The notes beneath the pieces are model-generated. The model was not told the DNA's origin. It worked only from the letters and a program-made list of their open reading frames with translations, and searched no databases. 63,877 nucleotides of DNA. It comes from Malacoraja senta (lineage: Eukaryota). Location of the stretch: positions 2,854,124 through 2,918,000 of the forward strand of contig CM075994.1 in assembly GCA_038087875.1 (NCBI GenBank). Direction: 5' to 3'. Made by a program: the position numbers and the translations under genes. Positions 1,028-44,400 of the stretch are shown piece after piece; the stretch's first letter is position 1; the number at the start of each line of letters is the position of its first letter.

Positions 1028-1243
1028 CAACAGTAGTATAAGCGTAGCTACCATGGTATTTTGGGACACTTCTGTGCAGCATTGTCAGTTTAGTATGCAT
1101 GCAATTAAATAACTTCTGAATTCATCAAGATTTGCCTCATCAGGAGTTATCACTTTCTAAATGAATTAATAAAGGACACAAAGGTTGGATCTGCAATGGT
1201 TGTAATGCAAGGCCAGTCACCCTGACAAGAAAGATATTTTAGA

Positions 1244-2441
1244 TTGGACTTTCAGAAGGCTTTCGACAAGGTCCCACATAAGAGATTAGCATACAAACTT
1301 AAAGCACATGGTATTGGGGGTTCAGTATTGATATGGATAGAGAACTGGCTGGCAGACAGGAAGCAAAGAGTAGGAGTAAACGGGTCCTTTTCAGAATGGC
1401 AGGCAGTGACTAGTGGGGTACCGCAAGGCTCAGTTCTGGGACCCCAGCTATTTACAATATATATTAATGATCTGGATGAGGGAATTGAATGCAACATCTC
1501 CAAGTTTGCGGATGACACGAAGCTGGGGGGCAGTGTTAGCTGTGAGGAGGATGCTAGGAGGCTGCAAGGTGACTTGGATAGGTTGGGTGAGTGGGCAAAG
1601 GCATGGCAGATGCAGTATAATGTGGATAAATGTGAGGTTATCCACTTTGGTGGCAAAAACAGGAAAGTAGACTATTATCTGAATGGTGGCCGATTAGAAA
1701 AGGGGAGATGCAACGAGACCTGGGTGTCATGGTACACCAGTCATTGAAAGTAGGAATGCAGGTGCAGCAGGCAGTGAAGAAAGCAAATGGTATGTTAGCA
1801 TTCATAGCAAAAGGATTTGAGTATAAGACAGGGAGGTTCTACTGCAGTTGTACAGGGTCTTGGTGAGACCACACCTGGAGTATTGCGTACAGTTTTGGTC
1901 TCCTAATCTGAGGAAAGACATTCTTGCCATAGAGGGAGTACAGAGAAGGTTCACCAGACTGATTCCTGGGATGGCAGGACTTTCATATGAGGAAAGACTG
2001 GATAGACTCGGCTTGTACACGTTGGAATTCAGAAGACTGAGGGGGGATCTTATAGAAACTTACAAAATTCTTAAGGGGTTGGACAGGCTAGATGCAGGAG
2101 ATTATTCCCGATGTTGGGGAAGTCCAGAACTAGGGGTCACAGTTTAAGGATAAGAGGGAAGACTTTTAGGACCAAGATGAGGAAATCATTTTTTACACAG
2201 AGAGTGGTGAATCTGTGGAATTCTCTGCCACAGAAGGTAGTTGAGGCCAGTTCATTGGCTATATTTAAGAGGGAGTTAGATGTGGCCCTTGTGGCTAAAG
2301 GGGGTCAGGGGGTATGGAGAGAAGGCAGGGATGGGATACTGAGTTGGATGATCAGCCATGATCATATCAAATGGCGGCGCAGGCTCGAAGGGCCGAATGG
2401 CCTACTCTGCACCTATTTTCTAATGTTTCTATGTTTCTATG
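1244..2441 (+). mobile_element. CR1/HER1-like LINE, 5'-truncated (RT C-terminal part + 3' UTR)
   Basis: [43 protein letters not shown]; frameshifted; tail (ctatgttt)n. Confidence 0.95.
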
Positions 2442-4163: not shown

Positions 4164-5732
4164 TCAAGTTCAAGTGAGTTTATTGTCATGTGTCCCTGAT
4201 AGGACAATGAAATTCTTGCTTTGCTTCAGCACAACAGAACATAGTAGGCATTGACTACAAAACAGATCAGTATGTCCATATACCATTCTATAAATATATA
4301 CACACATGAATAAATAAACTGATAAAGTGCAAATAACAGTTAATGGACTATTAAAGTTCAGAGTTTTGTCCGAGCCGGGTTTAATAGCCTGATGGTGTGG
4401 GAAGTAGCTATTCCTGAACCTGGTTGTTGCAGTCTTCAGGCTCCTGTACCTTCTACCTGAAGGTAGTAGGGGGATGAGTGTTTGGCCCAGGATGGTGGTG
4501 GGTCCTTGATGATACTGCCAGCCATTTTCAGGCAGCGACTGCGATAGATCCCTCGATGGAAGGGAGGTCAGAGCCGATGATGGACTGGGCAGTGTTTACT
4601 ACTTTTTGTAGTCTTTTCCTCTCCAGGGCGCTCAAGTTGCTGAACCAAGCCACGATGCAACTGGTCAGCATGCCTCTACTGTGCACCTGTAGAAGTTAGA
4701 GAGAGTCCTCCTTGACAAACCGACTCTCCGCAATCTTCTCAGGAAGTAGAGGCGCTGATGTGCTTTCTTAATAATGGCATCAGTGTTCTCGGACCAGGAA
4801 AGATCTTCAGAGATGTGCACGCCCAGGAATTTGAGCTCTTGACCCTTTCAACCATCGACCCGTTGATATAAACAGGACTGAGGGTCCCCATCCTACTCCT
4901 TCCAAAGCCCACAATCAGTTCCTTGGTTTTGCTGGTGTTGAGGGCCAGGTTATTGTGCTGGCACCATATGGACAGTTGCTCGATCTCTCTTTTATACTCT
5001 GACTCATCCCCATCAGTGATACGTCCCACAACAGTGGTGTCGTCAGCGAACTTGATGATGGAGTTCGCACTATGACCGGCTACGCAGTCATGAGTATTAG
5101 TGAGTACAGCAGGGGGCTGAGCACGCAGCCTTGAGGTGCTCCCGTGCTGATTGTTATCGAGTCTGAACACATTTCCACCAATACGAACAGACTGTGGTCT
5201 AAGAGTGAGGAAGTCGAGGGTCCAATTGCAAAGGGATGCGCAGAGACCCAGTTCTGCGAGTTTGGTAACCAGCTTGGAGAGGATGATTGTATTAAATGCC
5301 GAGCTGTAATCGATGAATAACAGCCTGACATATGAGTTTTTTGTTGTCCAAGTGGTCCAGAGCGGAGTAGAGGGCCAGCGAGATTGCATCCACCGTTGAT
5401 CTGTTGTGGCGGTAAGCGAACTGCAGTGGGTCCAGGTTTTTGTCGAGGTAGGAGTTGATCTGCGCCATGATCAACCTCTCAAAGCACTTCATCACCACAG
5501 GCGTTAGTGCCACAGGTCGATAGTCATTGAGGCACGTCACCTTACTCTTCTTGGGCACTGGTATAATTGATGCCCTTTTGAAGCAGGTGGGAACCTCAGA
5601 CCTCAGAAGTGAGAGGTTGAAATATCCGTAAAAACTCCAGCCAGTTGGTCCGCACAGGTTTTTAGAACACGACCAGGTATACCATCAGGTCCAGGCGCTT
5701 TTCGAGGGTTCACCCTCTGAAGGATTTCCTGA
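4164..5732 (-). mobile_element. Rex1/Babar-type LINE, 5'-truncated, nested in Penelope
   Basis: [60 protein letters not shown]; tail (cttgaa)n on - strand. Confidence 0.9.
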
Positions 5733-18063: not shown

Positions 18064-18529
18064 CCACTGTACTAGCCAGGAAATATTAAGTGACTAAGTT
18101 AAAAAAATTAAATTGTTGAACTGTTTTAAAAGATAAAATGAACCAAAACACTAAGAATACACTTTAAGATAACTAAAAGCATTAAATGTAATTGAAATTA
18201 TTAAAAATAAACACATTTTCCTTCTCTATAGCCCCACAATTTCCTCAGTATCCTAAGGAAGTGGAGACTGAGAACATTTGGCATGTCTCCAATACCTCTT
18301 ACAGACTTCTACAGATGCACCTGAGAAAGCACACTGTCATGTTGCATCAACCTGATGGTTTGGCTTGGGAACAGATCTGCTCAGGACTGCAAGAAAGTCC
18401 AGAGAGTTGTGGATGTAGCCCATTCCATCATACAGACCAGACTCCCCACCATTGACTTCACCTACACTTCACAATGCCTCAGAAAAGCAACCAACATAAT
18501 CAAAGTCTTGCCCAACCCAGTCATTCCTT

Positions 18530-18596
18530 GGCCCAATAGCAGAAGCGTCCACGTCGCGGGGCTGGAAACTGGAAGTATCCCAAGCTAATTCTGCTA
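18530..18596 (+). ncRNA. HDV-like (CPEB3-type) self-cleaving ribozyme fold
   Basis: P1 GGCCC/GGGCT (G1-U wobble), P2 TAGCAGAA/TTCTGCTA, P3 GCG/CGC, L3 TCCACGT, P1.1 CC/GG, P4 CTGGAAG-TA-TCCCAAG (imperfect), J4/2 CTAA with catalytic C at 18585. Confidence 0.8.
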
Positions 18597-18722
18597 CCAC
18601 CATCATCTATTGCAAGAAGTGAAGACTCCCACTGATTGTCGCTGACAGCTTGCGTCCTTTTCAGGACGGACGATGACAGCGATGTCAACATTTGAAATAT
18701 AGAAGATGGATACAAAAGAAGA
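18530..18722 (+). mobile_element. Short non-autonomous retroelement with 5' HDV-like ribozyme and (GAA)n tail
   Basis: 11-bp TSD AGTCATTCCTT (18519-18529, 18723-18733); 3' tail aaaagaagaa; ribozyme fold starts at the first base. Confidence 0.8.
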
Positions 18723-20827
18723 AGTCATTCCTTCTTCCCACTCCCATCATGCAGAAGATACGGAAACTTAAAAGTGTGCACCACCAGTCTCAAAACAGCT
18801 TCTTCCCTTCTGTTATCAGGCTTCTGAACAATCCTACCATAAGCTACGGTACTGTCCAATTCACCTCTACCTCATTACGGACATTGAACTTTATCTATGG
18901 AATAGGTGTACTACAATGCTGAAACAATATTCTGTACACTGTATATTCCTCTTAGCTCTACCTAGTGTGTTTGAGCTTGACGATTGTATTTATATATAGT
19001 GTTATCTTATTTTATTGGATAGCAGGCAAAACAAAGCTTGTACAATAAACCTAAACCTAAATATCCATTATATCAATGGAGGTGCAAATCTTAATCCGTC
19101 TAATTTGTAATTTAGAATAAGAACTGGCACATTTTTTTGCTTTGAAGTATGTCTAATCCTGGATCCAAGAGCCAATTCATCACTATAAACGCTGGGGAAT
19201 CTCCATAAAATTGAGCCGTTGCCACTGGATTCTATGGGAAGTCCTGCTGTGGAAGATCTTGAAAGATGTTGCTCAGTAGTTCTGGACTTCTGCATTTGAC
19301 TATAAACACAAGGAAGTCCTGGATTTGCTTCCACTTAACCAGGTAAAACTCGGCAGTCCTGTCCAGACCACTGCTATTCTTTGAAGAGCAGATTATATGA
19401 ATATTGAATCAACTCAAAGCAATGCAAAGGATTTCTCTAGCTATCAATGCTAAATTGATAGTTAATCAAATTTGCCATAACCAGTCAAGCACTAGAGCAT
19501 TTATAAGGCGTGGAATCAAGTTAGATAACTAGGGCTAAAATACAAAACACATCATCTAATTGAATTAACAGGCTTGAGAGTCAAATGGCCTTCTCTCACA
19601 GTAATATTAAAGATTCAAATTTTCTATTATTTTCCAGACAAATAGTGACACAGGGAGAAATGTAATTGAATTGCAGCAAATAGCCATGATAAAACACATG
19701 AACGAAGCACAGGTCAAAGATAACAGAGATATGATTGTAAATAATTGAGATATGGATTCTGTGAGAGTTTCTATGCACAGTTGACAAATACTGGTAAAAT
19801 CCTGTTGAGACAACAAATGCTTGCTCAGCATTCCTGTTCTACAGTAGCTAATAGTTCAAAGGAAAATCACTTCTGACAATTGGCAAGGAAGGAGATAAAG
19901 GTGCAGCATCTTACTGTCATATAAACTTCAGGTGGGTTTTGCGGCTGTGATTACTCTTAGCTCATATTTTCCTTTCTTTGTACCACCGTCTCATTGTCAT
20001 CTATATAAAATTTTAGACGTTTCTGGTGCAGAGATGTATATAGCACAGAATAGGAACATAGCAGAAAGAGAACCATCTTACCCTCAGGCATGTTTATTCA
20101 AATCAAATTTAGCTGTTTTATTTTATCCTAATCCCATTTACCTACCATGACTCAATGCTCCCTGACCATTTTGGCAATTTGATTATCAGTCTAAGAGCAT
20201 GTTAGTTCTCTGTCATAAAGTTGTCTGCTAACTGCACCTGGCTATGTTACACCGATCTCCTGACGAAAGGATTCAGGGCAAAGAAAATTCAGGACAATAT
20301 GACAACATATTTGAAACAAAATAGTGTGTTTACTGGAAATATGAAATACAGGTAGAAGATGCTAGAAATACTCATTGTTAAAACATTATGAGCTCATAGA
20401 GTCATACAGAACAGTCTTTTCAGTCCATTCAGTACCATCTGACCATCTCACATTATATTCCATATCTTTTCTCCACACATTCCCATCAACTCCCATCCCT
20501 AGATTCTACCATTCACCTACATTCTGGGGGCAACTTACAATGGCTAATTAACATACCCGTAAGTTGTGAGAACAAGTCAGAACACACAGAGGAAATCCAT
20601 GTAGTCAAAAGTAGAGTGTAAAAACTGCATAGACAAGATTGAATCCAAGGAACTGTGAGCCAGCAGCTCTACTAGCTGCGCCACCGTGAAACACTGAATA
20701 CTTCTAAAATGTTATTCCTTATAAAGCACTAATATCCAACATCTTTAATCATTGTATCAGTTACAGACAGAACTGTCCTGGGAGTGAAACGAGTCTGCCT
20801 TTTTTCATGTAGAAATTTACACATATA

Positions 20828-38400: not shown

Positions 38401-41400
38401 TGTAGCTCTGTGGTTTTATTTGTGATTCCAGGTACAGCTACAGAGAGCTCTTAAAATACAGGAGGAACTTACATTTTTTTGCTGTTCCGTGGAAATATTG
38501 CAAAATATGTTAAATGTTTATACACAGAAACAAAAGTTACAAATACCCAATGTTGTATGATTTTAAATGGTTGAGAGATCTGTTTTCTCCATTCTCACAT
38601 TTTTTAGGCTCTGCCCTATTATTACCATTTTAAAAAAATTGCAAAATATGAGATTAAGATGAAGTATTCTGTTCCTATGAAAATGGTATTAGAATTTGGA
38701 AGCTGATTACTTTCTCATATTTTGCATTCAATTTCTAGTTTGTGTTGTGCATGGATTAGATGCAAATATGATTACTTTTGTGATGTATTTTTTAAATGCA
38801 TTGCTCTATATTGCAGGAAGAAGAATGGACAGTTGCATGTTTGTGATGAATCAACCTTCACTGAAACTGATTCTGGTAAATACCACGGTCTGGCTGCCTT
38901 CTCAGTCTTTGGGGCACCCACGTTATTATGAGTTATTGCAGTACAGATTATTCCATTAGGAAGATTGCCTAAAATAAGATTTGCTTGTCTGTTCAAGTAT
39001 TGGTTCTACAGTAATTGAATCCTTCAAATCATCCTCTAAGCCTCTTACTTTGTTATTTTCCTTGTGAAAGAGCTAGTAAGCCTGTCCATCTGCTGAAATG
39101 TGTTGCTTACTGTGAAATAGAAAGATAGACTGGTTGTTAATTAAGAAATCATGTATAAATCAATACAATGGCAGTGATAATTAAAAAAAAAAAACTAACT
39201 TGCTTTCGAATAAACAATTTGTAGTAAATGATAATACTCCCCAGCCTTTGGAGATGTCGAAGGAAGAGGCTTCTTAGACCATCATTGAGTCAAAACAAGA
39301 TAGATTCACAGGCTTAAACCAACTATACTTTAACCAGAGATCCCTACTTGCACTGAATGGAATTGAAAATTTTGTCCTCGAACACAGATTTATTCAGCCA
39401 TCATTGCATTCCCAGTAAACATGAATCTTTTTCCAACTGTATTTTGGGAACATATGATGATAACTTATTTGGGGGGGGGGGGTGGCTTGATAGCCTAATT
39501 ACACATACTTGATTTATTTGGTTCATATGCATGTAAAATGCAATGTTCAGAGCTTCTTGGTAATATTTATGAAAACTATTTATGTTTTTAGTGGTTAAAA
39601 GTGTAAGATGGGAAGGTCAATGCATTGCAATGACAAGTTTGGAACCTTGGTGCCCTGTCTAAGGTCATGTCATATGGATACTAAATATAAAACCATGTAG
39701 CCAGATTTCTTTTCAGTTTTGTATTCCAGATGAGGGAAGGGACTTCAAGTGCAATGGTATCCATTTTGTTTATTGGCATTAGGGACTGCCAGGTCACAAT
39801 GTTTAGATCGAAGTATATCTGCTTCATTTTCCAAAAACTTAGTGACTAATGCTGAAATGTGCTTAATTCTGAAGTGAAAGATACAATAGGCATTACATGT
39901 TAAAACAATCTGATTGAGTTTTTCACTATTCTACAAGCTACAGAACTATTTCACCAACAACTTCTGGGGACCACCCATATTGAAGCAGCGGCCAAGAAAG
40001 CACACCAATGCCTCTACTTCCTCAGAAGGCTTAGGCAGTTTGGCATGAACCCAACAACTCTCACCAACTTCTACAGATGTGCCTTAGAAAGCATTTTATC
40101 GGGATGCATCACAGCATGGCTTGGGAACAGCTCCATCCAAGATGGCAAGAAATTGCAGATAATTTTGGACGCAGCACAAGCCATCACACAAACCAACCTC
40201 CCATCCATTATCCCCATGTATACCTCATGCTGCCTCGGCAAGGCCAGCAGCATAATCAAGGATGAGTCACAACCTGACCACTCCCTCTTCTCCCCTCTAT
40301 CTTCGAGCAACAGGTGAAAAGCACACATCCAGATTCAGGGACAGTTTCTTTCTAGCTGTTATCAGGTGACTGAATTATCCTACCACAATTATAGAGCAGT
40401 CCTGAATTACTATCTACCTCATTGGAGACCCTCAGACTATCTTTGATCTGACTTTACTGGCTTTATCTTGCACTAAACGTTCCTCACGTTATCCCCTTTA
40501 TCATGTATCTGTACACTGTGAATAGCTCCAATGTAATCATATATTGTCTTTCCGCTGACTGGTTAGCATGCATCAAAATTCTTCACTGTACCTCGGTCCA
40601 TGTGACAATAAATAAACTATTTGGTTTCCTATCAAATATGATATGAGGCAAGAAAAACCTGCAAATGTGTAAAGCACCAAGTTGTAGATCAATTCTACTG
40701 CATGGCAGTGTTGTCTGACGCCACCATTGCCCTTAAGTGACTTGCAACAGGTTTTTCACTCTTTCATTGAAATATTTTTACAAATCTAGTTTGAATTTAT
40801 TCAACTTCATTTCCAAACCGGAGGACTGGGAAAGCAAATCGTAGGACTGGGAGAAATTTAGAACTCAATAGAGGAGGACAAAGGGGTTAATTAAGAGGGG
40901 GGGGGAAGAGCATGAAAGAAAGCTTGCGGGAAATATAAAAACACTCTAAAAGCTTCTTTAGATATGTAAAAAGGAAAAGATTAGTGAAGACAAATGGCAA
41001 TCAGAGACAGGTGAATTTATAATGGGAGACAAGGAAATGGCAGAACAGTTAAATGAGTACTTTGTTTGTGTCTTCCTTAGTGAAGACAGAACCAATCTCC
41101 CAGAAATACTAGGGGACCGAGGATCTAGTGGGAGGGAGGAACTGAAGGAAATCTACATTAGTCAGGAAATGGTGTTCGGTAAACTGTTGGGACTGAAGGC
41201 AGATAAATCCCCAGGGCCTGATGGTCTGCATCCCAGAGTACTCAAGGAGTTGGCCCTAGAAATCGTGGATGCGTTGATGATCATTTTCCAATGTTCTCTT
41301 GACTCTGGATCAGTTCCTGTGGACTGGAGAGTAGCCAATGTAACCCCACTTTTTAAGAAAGGAGGAAGAGAGAAAATGGGGAATTATTGACCAGTTAGCC

Positions 41401-44400
41401 TTACTTCGGTAGTGGGGAAGATGCTTGAGTCGATTGTTAAAGATGCTATAGCAGTGCATTTGAAAAGTAGTGACAGGGTCGGTCAAAGTCAGCATGGATT
41501 TATGAAGGGGAAATCATGTTTGACTAATCTTCTGGAATTTTTTGAGGAAGTAACAAGTAGAATATGTCCATTCACCGGGAGAGCCAGTGGATGTGGTGCA
41601 TCTGGACTTTCAAAAAGCCGTTGACAAGGTCCCACACAAGAGATTAGTGTGCAACATTAGAGCACATGGTAGTGGAGGTCAGGGATTGACATGGATTGAG
41701 AACTGGTTGGCAGACAGGAAACAAAGAGTAGGAATTAATTGGTCCTTTTCAGAATGGCAGGCAGTGACTAGTGGGGTGCCGCAAGGCTCGGTGCTGGGGC
41801 CCGTTATTTACAATACATATTAATGATTTAGATGAGGGAATTAAATGTGACATCTCTAAGTTTGCAGATGACACAAAGCTGGGTGACAGTGTGAGCTGCG
41901 ATGAGGATGCTATGAGGTTGCAGGGTGACTTGGATAGGTTGGGTGAGTGGGCAGATGCATGGCAGATGCAGTATAATGTGGATAAATGTGAGATCCACTT
42001 TGGTGGCAAGAACAAGAAGGCAAATTATTATCTGAATGGTGTCAGTTTAGGAAAAGGGGACGTGCAACAAGACCTGCATGTGCTTATACATCAGTCACTG
42101 AAAGTAAGCATACAGGTACAGCAGGCAGTGAAGAAAGCTAATGGCATGTTGGCCTTCATTGCGAGAGGATTTGAGTTTAGGAACAAGGAGGTCCTACTGC
42201 AGTTGTACAAGGCCCTGGTGAGACCGCACCTGGAGTATTGTGTGCAATTTTGGTCTCCTAATTTGAGGAAGGACATTGCTATTGAGGGAGTGCAGTGTAG
42301 GTTCACCAGGTTAATTCCCGGATTGGCGGGACTGACATGAAAGAATGGGTCGACTGGGCTTGTATTCACTGGAATTTAGAACGATGAGAGGGGATCATAT
42401 CGAAACATATAAAATTCTTAAAGGATTGGACAGGCTAGATGCCGGAAATATGTTCCCGATGTTGGGGGAGTCCAGAACCAGGGGTCACAGTAGGCCATTT
42501 AGGACTGAGATGAGGAAAAACTTCTTCACCCAGAGAGTTGTATGAGCGGCGGAGGAGAATTCAATGGATGTTTTCAAGAGAGGGTTAGATTTAGCTCTTG
42601 GGGCTAATGGAATCAAGGGATATGGGGGAGAAAGCAGGAACGGGGTACTGATTTTAGACGATCAGCCATGATCATATTGAATGGCGGCGCTGGCTTGAAG
42701 GGCCGAATGGCCTACTTCTGCACCTATTTTTCTATGTTTCTATTCTAAGTATTAAGTAAGCAAGCTCTATCTTAACATGTATAATTGAGTCACCAAGTTG
42801 TAGACTGATAGCACTATAATGATGATCCTTCATGAAAGTTCTACAGCTGGTTAAAATTGTAAAGAATTTCTTAACCTTCTCACTTCAGAGGGAGTAGGCA
42901 AAATTTAGGAGGAAGATTGTTAGTCTATCTACTGCTTATTCATGCACTTGGAGAAATGAGTTCTTCCCTATTGCTTAAAGTCAATTATACTTGTACAAGA
43001 AATGCTGGAGACCTTTTGTAAATATAACTATCTTTTGATTGGCAACTTTAAAAGATGCAGGCAGTGAATTGGGACAGAAGATCAGCAAATTTGATGTCCT
43101 TCGCAATAAAGCAGAATCTGACACAGAAAATGAAGAATTCGTCAGTCTACCTGGAAGGCGACCAAATTCCACCCAAACTTTCTTTGCCAAAAATCTGGTA
43201 AATATTCTTAACACTGTCTTATTGTTGCTATTCGGGACAAGGATATTAAACCTTCATTTTGTTGGTATGCAAGATCAAATTCTTATTGTAATTTAAAAAT
43301 GTGGAATTAATCTTTATTTTTTAGATAGAACTAAACACAATTGATTTTTGGTTAATCACATTATGAGATGAGAGAGACCTTATGGAGTGCATTGACTAAT
43401 CACAATTAATCTTGTGTGCATTCAGCACTAATATGCATGGTAAAGGGATCTTGTACTGATGAAACCAGGTGATTATTCCCTGGTTTGTCGAGAACATATG
43501 AATAAGACAGTATGATAATCTAGAAATATTTCCCCCTCCACTGCAGTGGAACGAAAATCTTTTGGGAGGTGAAGGGTACAGTTGTCCCTCAAATGCTCCA
43601 AAGTCATGTAAGTGATTAATTTTTTTTTAACATGTATTAGCTTCTAATTTACCACATAATTTTTGTACAAAGATAATAATATCCAAAAGATGTATTCTAA
43701 TTAAGTATTATTAGAAATCAAAGACCAAAAATTAAACCAGTTTCATATGTTTGTTTTTAATTTTGCTTACAGAAGGATGGTGTTTTTGTTTGCACTCTGG
43801 AACTGGTTATTGATTGTGTAGTGTATTTATTGACCCATGGAAATAGTATAGAAACTATAACGGTGGTTTGTATAAAAAGCTCCGATAAAAAGCTTTCGCA
43901 CTTCAACCATACTCCAAAACATAGCAGGTACTCTATTCAGAAATTGAACTGAGACAAATGCCTGACAAATTGGGCATAAAATCCTGTAACACCATGGATT
44001 TCTTGGAAATTTCGCTGATTCCTCAAAGACGGCTTAACTGGGCATTCATCCTGGTCGTTTATAAAACTAAGCTGTATTCTTTAAATTAACTATGCTTTAA
44101 GATATTTTAATGTGATGGAAGTTTACTTTTGAACCAAATTTGCTCACGGTTATTAACTTTTTCAAATATGTGTGGCAGTTATTAGACCGGTAATGGATCA
44201 TCCTCATACAAGAAACTTAAAGAAAACTGATCCTGTGGCAAAGTGAGTGCTGGATTCATAATTATTTCAATTTCATATACAAATTGTAAATTTGCCTTTC
44301 TTCAACCATGCTACCTTTGAACTGATCTGATCCTCCCATGCAATTCACTCTGCAACTTGTTCATTTACATTTTCATGAATCAATTTAGGTATATTCAGTG

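Follow-up and report, generated by a model that had tools for sequence, protein, structure and literature searches.

In the L1Tc/NARTc and R2/SIDE systems among retrotransposons that lack long terminal repeats (non-LTR retrotransposons), a 5′ ribozyme resembling that of hepatitis delta virus (HDV) frees the element RNA out of a longer transcript, and short derivatives borrow the protein of the parent (PMC4035085, PMC6765202). NARTc, RIME and the R2 SIDEs retain the ends of a long interspersed nuclear element (LINE), have lost its open reading frame (ORF), have the cut site at their first base and are flanked by duplications of about 12 bp (PMC4035085, PMC6765202, PMC5786205); ribozyme-headed deleted LINEs are a kind already known. 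Six ribozyme-bearing LINE clades are listed in PMC5786205; Vingi is not among them, and its text and supplement hold no mention of CPEB3, the mammalian gene with an intronic, memory-linked HDV-like ribozyme. Vingi elements are described with an apurinic/apyrimidinic endonuclease (APE) and a reverse transcriptase (RT) domain and without RNase H (PMC13708176). Here, a 63,877-nt stretch of the Malacoraja senta genome (contig CM075994.1; in the following, the window) was analysed with regard to a 193-nt element at positions 18530-18722, which a preceding sequence-only reading had taken for a mobile short retroelement headed by an HDV-like ribozyme. We read it, with a probability of about 0.88, as a short derivative that arose by internal deletion from a Vingi-type non-LTR retrotransposon, is not autonomous and carries a predicted ribozyme at its 5′ end.

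The element is like NARTc, RIME and the R2 SIDEs in the traits named above and differs from them in its vertebrate-type host genome, its Vingi-like parent without RNase H, its composition of three pieces, its GAA tail and its CPEB3-type ribozyme. Vingi and its derivatives (Vingi-1_EE, Vingi-1_Acar, Vingi-2_Gav) likewise have a single APE/RT ORF, no RNase H, a length of about 3.1 kb and deletion derivatives (PMC5786205, PMC13708176). No literature linking Vingi to a ribozyme or to CPEB3 was found, Repbase reports, patents and bioRxiv supplements lying outside the scope of that search. Vingi 5′ ends may be among the sea-urchin, lancelet, lamprey and 'Ingi' ribozymes reportedly treated by Webb 2009, Ruminski 2011, Webb and Luptak 2011 and Kojima 2011, in which case the link would be less novel.

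The 193-nt insertion and its parent element

The 193 nt are enclosed by an exact 11-nt direct repeat and end in a short GAA-type tail, as the sequence-only reading had described. The site without insertion is represented by three related copies of the host repeat that read straight across. The features of the locus, with their basis in brackets, are the following:

18519..18529, + strand: 5′ target-site duplication, 11 bp (the repeat itself; empty host-repeat copies)
18530..18596, + strand: HDV-like ribozyme fold, predicted to be cut 5′ of G18530, with C18585 as putative catalytic base and a private mismatch in helix P1 at 18535 (helix mapping, Rfam and covariation; the parent LINE has it as its 5′ end)
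18597..18621, + strand: remnant of the parent 5′ untranslated region (UTR), about 50 nt less than in the parent (alignment to the parent)
18622..18686, + strand: first ~21 codons of the parent ORF, the start codon being mutated in the window copy and present in the family (translation, parent alignment)
18687..18722, + strand: final two codons of the parent with its stop, 3′ UTR and GAA tail, fused to the 5′ part by a deletion of ~2.87 kb (parent alignment)
18723..18733, + strand: 3′ target-site duplication, 11 bp (the repeat itself)
18277..18842, + strand: host repeat, a degenerate 3′ fragment of another LINE split by the element, presumably Rex1-like (related repeat copies)

The middle of the element codes for a short peptide that is nearly identical to the N-terminus of the sea-urchin RT protein P0068. 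By means of a protein search with P0022 and a sequence pattern the parent L076 was located, a degraded element of ~3.1 kb whose flanking duplication spans 12 bp with 1 mismatch. Nucleotides 2-83, 85-157 and 158-193 of the window copy align to nucleotides 29-103, 156-228 and 3096-3132 of L076, and the same ribozyme opens all six parent 5′ ends (L076-L081), a concordance that makes chimeras unlikely. Both ends of the element thus come from one LINE, the ORF is deleted and the product was amplified as a unit with duplications. Mobilisation by a Vingi/Ingi-type LINE had been suggested from the letters of the window, and with L076 an autonomous-type LINE sharing both ends is at hand; RTE, considered as partner for a time, was dropped after this parent had been found.

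The parent clade has a single ORF, and its proteins carry APE and RT domains and no RNase H. The degraded parent aligns end to end with parent-clade homologues and with the proteins of family A, a sister family described below. In a quick RT tree the clade joins proteins of Anolis, sea urchin, lancelet and insects (Shimodaira-Hasegawa-like approximate likelihood ratio test, SH-aLRT, 84), none of which is labelled Vingi. The firmest basis for the name Vingi is the 5′ end, which matches nucleotides 2-74 of the printed Vingi-2_Gav sequence (by eye, from the supplement of PMC5786205); the tree is compatible with it. Protein identity of L076 to the sea-urchin element, with which it is grouped in the tree, amounts to 73% and 79% (L076:164-1276 and 1726-2295), and the parent lineage may have been transferred horizontally.

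The host genome of 1.94 Gb was searched and read out in stretches, so that every copy number is a minimum; the copies fetched are those that scored best. The search returned 2018 candidates, and all of the 40 that were scored match the element at 92-100% over at least 190 nt. The element head gave at least 1401 matches and the deletion junction at least 687, with none for the reversed controls, from which it follows that the head is common to other deletion subfamilies. Other runs have another deletion junction whose 3′ end is shorter (L076:219 and 228), so that several short derivatives of the same parent arose independently. In 21 of 28 distinct loci (30 fetched copies minus two duplicate loci) the flanks carry a duplication of ≥9 bp, one mismatch being allowed, compared with 1 of 756 mismatched flank pairs. 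Across 29 copies, a further one with an indel being omitted, sequences depart from the majority by 1.0-6.2%, chiefly at CpG; the window copy is the most diverged, one of its 12 differences abolishing the sixth P1 pair. These dispersed copies with a common start and with duplications bear out the proposal of a mobile family and exclude a single-copy sequence. Of 24 listed public runs, 20 (14 studies, nine organisms; four rows possibly the source of this DNA) contain at least half of the sampled element words; no RNA run was among the listed runs, which therefore have no bearing on expression.

The flank that received the element had been labelled an old Rex1 fragment. The flank itself has no Pfam match, and the label draws its support from a host-repeat copy at 39904-40293, 70% alike, that matches PF09004, a domain which we take to tie it to Rex1-type LINEs. 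Other LINE fragments in the window are an RT match at 4742-5470 (-), this PF09004 copy (+), and two stretches at 1226-1744 (+) and 41768-42337 (+) that look CR1-like by eye.

The 5′ ribozyme fold in the window copy, its family and its relatives

Every helix of the 67-nt fold named in the sequence-only reading was found at its place. In the window copy P1 is formed by 18530-18534/18559-18563, P2 by 18537-18544/18589-18596, P3 by 18545-18547/18555-18557 and P1.1 by 18549-18550/18564-18565, with loop L3 at 18548-18554 and the joining segment J4/2 beginning at C18585; together with P4 and the wobble of G1 this constitutes the nested double pseudoknot of HDV-like ribozymes. The predicted cleavage site had been placed at the junction of duplication and element, and all 30 fetched copies share this start position, 29 of them with a G. 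The family P1 comprises 6 bp, of which the window copy forms five through a private C-to-A change at 18535, so the earlier remark that a 5-bp P1 may impair the ribozyme applies to this copy and not to the family. The putative catalytic C at the start of J4/2 is present in 28 of 28 distinct copies and the G of the L3 U/G pair in 24, and P1.1 of the family consists of two G-C pairs. Minimum-energy folding gave a z-score of -2.3; being blind to pseudoknots, it is not counted as support.

The covariance-model check proposed earlier was run with Rfam. RF00622, the CPEB3 model, was the sole ribozyme family among seven matches at E≤10 in 651 nt around the element and scored the window copy at 30.0 bits (E 6.2e-6 in 651 nt), below the cut-off of 35, while the family copy L002 reached 39.3 bits; the whole window has no Rfam match at or above cut-off. 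Searched against the host genome, RF00622 gave 51 matches among 59 scored of ~102,000 candidates, 39 of the 59 exceeding the cut-off with a top score of 64.2 bits, and it gave no match in 14 control genomes. The 30 loci fetched from this search fall into five families other than the window family, which score 37-64 bits on the model, compared with 30-39 bits for the window family. The window family is among the least CPEB3-like in its genome, and the strong CPEB3 link comes from its sister families.

Family A (12 loci) is a 3.14-kb element with copies 96-98% alike; its one ORF has the APE and RT domains and lacks RNase H, six of nine extended copies are flanked by duplications of ≥11 bp, and homologues occur in anole, sea urchin, lancelet, fishes and insects. 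It is young, and some copies have stop-free frames of ~1000 codons (L061-L069; G000:C4:35486639-35489578). In families C, D and E a Vingi-like ORF adjoins 9 of 12 loci and two more match a family 3′ end; these families were considered as short elements, but most proved to be inverted 5′ ends of long ones. In total, 23 of the 30 fetched loci connect to a Vingi-like ORF or its 3′ end. Family F (L051, L053 and L057-L060) is ~140-180 nt long, has 11-12-bp duplications in five of its six loci and is headed by a ~54-nt minimal HDV-like fold without P4, whose first P1 base seemingly comes from the flank. Its 3′ motif suggests a link to Vingi-like elements; no parent of family F was found. At the 5′ end of L041/L069, tandem repeats of the first ~30 ribozyme nucleotides stand ahead of the element, as if copied several times.

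Outside this genome, a metagenome scan with protein alignment yielded 80 loci, 20 of which were scanned against Rfam. Of these 20 one, L084, reaches 55.6 bits on RF00622, the hit lying at the 5′ junction of the element, which is full-length and flanked by a 14-bp duplication; its sister L085 is 5′-truncated. In more distant LINEs (~30-38% protein identity) the fold is more distant, with 22-25 bits or nothing on RF00622, and L138 and L142 carry a related fold upstream of the ORF. A custom structure descriptor recovered one of four positive controls, so its blanks mean little, and the core motif had no match in viral contigs. By eye, the same ribozyme can be recognised in two sequences printed in the PMC5786205 supplement, where it forms the 5′ end of gharial Vingi-2 and the middle part of alligator SINE2-1_AMi. 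SINE2-1_AMi, composed of a tRNA head and a Vingi 5′ part (PMC5786205), is like the element in this sequence and in a similar 3′ motif; it differs in that the ribozyme part lies behind the tRNA head, with L3 and P1 changes that look inactivating by eye, whereas in the window element it forms the 5′ end itself.

Covariation was assessed on 22 distinct sequences from different families. Excluding P4 and P1.1, and with counts inflated by related sequences, 90% of cells were paired and 52 were changed on both sides, values that none of 500 shuffles reached on either measure; slid controls had at most 53% of cells paired. The compensatory changes between families lie in P1 and P2. Covariation was thereby observed between families and not within the young window family, where changes resemble neutral CpG decay. 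Besides this, several points weigh against our reading. Two of the five covariation measures did not rise above the shuffles (50 and 487 of 500). All core pairs and residues are intact in 15 of the 28 distinct copies, and the window copy is not one of them. The six parent copies are degraded and 84-90% alike, L076 has itself lost the 3′ strand of P2, and consequently no active partner of the window family is identified. For these proteins the name Vingi is drawn from domain content, host range and a published 5′ end instead of a direct match to a named reference; L045, among families C, D and E, and the whole of family F show no protein link. L082, a full-length Vingi-like element of another subclade, has no RF00622 match, which leaves a ribozyme 5′ end not established as clade-wide, and of 15 metagenome loci that include DNA upstream of an ORF start only 3 had a model hit at E≤0.001, one of them by construction.

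Likeness to the mammalian CPEB3 ribozyme

The mammalian CPEB3 ribozyme was unknown outside mammals according to a 2021 paper, and a 2020 review floats domestication and names no donor. The CPEB3 ribozyme and that of the window family agree in topology, P2 and P3 and very nearly in L3 and J4/2. The two differ in that the window family is multi-copy and mobile, whereas the CPEB3 ribozyme is single-copy and intronic, and in that the former has a 6-bp P1 with inverted pairs, a P1.1 of two G-C pairs and an unrelated P4. Since the element is dispersed in many copies and not a single copy in the second intron as in mammalian CPEB3, its ribozyme is a homologue or an analogue and not the CPEB3 ribozyme itself. 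The sister families also share the P1, the weak P1.1 with one G-C pair and the P4 stem of CPEB3.

All CPEB3 comparisons were counted by eye against rows of the PMC8233481 supplement (opossum/wallaby and elephant). The window family agrees with elephant at 29 of 31 positions in P2, P3, L3 and J4/2 and differs in P1, P1.1 and P4, so that the near-identity of the core claimed in the sequence-only reading holds for the former parts and not for the latter. Family A differs from elephant at 9 of 49 positions, eight of which are four compensated pairs. Agreement with opossum/wallaby is 47 of 48 visible non-P4 positions for Vingi-2_Gav, 46 of 49 positions for L084, and 59 of 63 non-loop positions for the majority sequence of family C, with 14 of 14 in the P4 stem. 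The P4 stem of SINE2-1_AMi agrees at 14 of 14 as well, and its 7-bp stem is letter for letter that of family C. In the platypus row of the same supplement only a P4-like stretch is kept; should it be orthologous, the insertion would be older than the monotreme split and would have decayed in platypus.

This likeness might be due to convergence on a compact HDV-like solution, the mammalian ribozyme being of other origin. Cores can indeed look alike, R2 and HDV ribozymes having 21 of 27 core nucleotides in common (PMC8256844); the L3 loop is common to distant LINE relatives too, and the window family is unlike CPEB3 in P1, P1.1 and P4. However, only six positions are invariant in the class according to PMC8256844, yet the relatives match CPEB3 in stems that are free to vary: P1 and P2 vary with compensation between families while L084 and Vingi-2_Gav retain the CPEB3 letters, the 7-bp P4 stem recurs in two lineages, and RF00622 scores drop with LINE distance. 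Because such stems match CPEB3 in several lineages, descent is favoured over convergence, which we regard as unlikely. By this comparison, the window ribozyme appears to share its sequence lineage with the mammalian CPEB3 ribozyme, to which it is more closely related than the ribozymes of sister clades are, in line with the kinship to the CPEB3-source retroelement suggested before. Judged from these alignments, the mammalian CPEB3 ribozyme probably goes back to an old Vingi insertion of which the 5′ end was retained, that is, to exaptation.

Cleavage, mobilisation and the direction of descent

Another possibility concerns function: the 5′ structure could be a relic, a promoter, a protein-binding site or a 5′ protection that no longer cuts in the window family. 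Pr77 of L1Tc acts as promoter and ribozyme, and some well-folded trypanosomatid examples are inactive (PMC4035085). P1 of the family is one pair shorter than that of CPEB3; nevertheless, P1 stems of R2 ribozymes typically have 6 or 7 bp (PMC3774820), a range that includes the family P1, and the conservation of the putative catalytic C, the two G-C pairs of P1.1 and the exact start of the copies at G1 also argue for cleavage. A loss of cutting across the window family is therefore quite improbable, and its ribozyme probably cuts. For the window copy itself P1 mismatches matter, as they are tied to lost activity (PMC3774820); cutting by this copy would be doubtful, at about even odds.

Release and mobilisation in trans as in L1Tc/NARTc and R2/SIDE are inferred, by analogy, to apply here. 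A host-driven or element-driven transcript would run through a copy, and the HDV-like ribozyme would cut just before G1 and thereby fix an exact RNA 5′ end. The endonuclease/RT protein of the parent would bind the retained 3′ end in trans, as the shared ends suggest, and target-primed reverse transcription would then insert the copy and leave a duplication of 10-13 bp.

A further kind of insertion was found in 8 of the 30 RF00622 loci, where a 5′ piece of 92-117 nt and a 3′ part of the opposite strand, truncated to varying extents, lie back to back:

~1500-1630 of L035, L038, L042, L043, L046, L049, L052 and L055: 5′-inverted Vingi-like insertions, each with one enclosing duplication of 9-13 bp

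The same arrangement without clear duplication occurs in L039, L048, L054 and L056, and the metagenome loci L139 and L101 look similar. Within a family the outer breakpoint is nearly fixed, ~20-45 nt past the ribozyme, while the inner breakpoints differ, which indicates separate insertion events. The 5′-inverted insertions resemble twin priming at a preferred site. As the sample was picked by ribozyme score, the rate is not genome-wide. We consider it likely, with slightly less assurance than the exaptation as such, that the CPEB3 ribozyme is a domesticated Vingi 5′ end for which living Vingi families are the missing outgroups, the 5′-inverted insertions showing how a lone ribozyme could stay behind in an intron. 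If this is true, any Vingi remnant would be expected upstream of the mammalian ribozyme and on the opposite strand.

In the reverse direction, Vingi would have captured the ribozyme from the host CPEB3 locus and then spread it. Vingi-like elements may cross species (73-79% protein identity between parent and sea urchin), by which a captured piece could spread. Against this, the host ribozyme is reported in mammals only, and the element form sits precisely on the 5′ junction in three or more RT subclades of the quick tree and in gharial, with graded relatives in distant LINEs. The four contigs that have CPEB-type exons hold none of the 51 listed matches, a weak point as 59 of ~102,000 candidates were scored. 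A small contig, G000:C2259, has two equal-scoring CPEB-type ZZ exons in opposite orientation at 87041 (+) and 155979 (-), which may reflect an inverted duplication or an assembly artefact. Since the element form extends across RT subclades and hosts, the host form is reported from mammals only and an ancient Vingi trace is reported from the human genome (PMC5753468), transfer from element to host is the simpler course on these unrooted data, and capture from the host is very unlikely.

The sequence-only reading had proposed a family of ribozyme-headed SINEs (short interspersed nuclear elements). A true SINE, with an independent RNA-gene head and a LINE tail, is next to negligible in spite of SINE-like size, copy number, duplications and tail, since no tRNA, 5S or 7SL match was found in the element and one LINE accounts for its head, middle and tail alike. 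The element is better placed as an internally deleted non-autonomous LINE derivative of Vingi type. Vingi-1 UTRs serve RNA gene-writing platforms, for which a review names ribozymes for R2 only, and a self-cleaving 5′ end in this clade would be of practical interest. By adding a widespread mobile reservoir of such ribozymes, the families described here also bear on a proposed origin of the HDV ribozyme from CPEB3, and they offer a candidate donor clade together with natural variants for reconstruction and activity tests.

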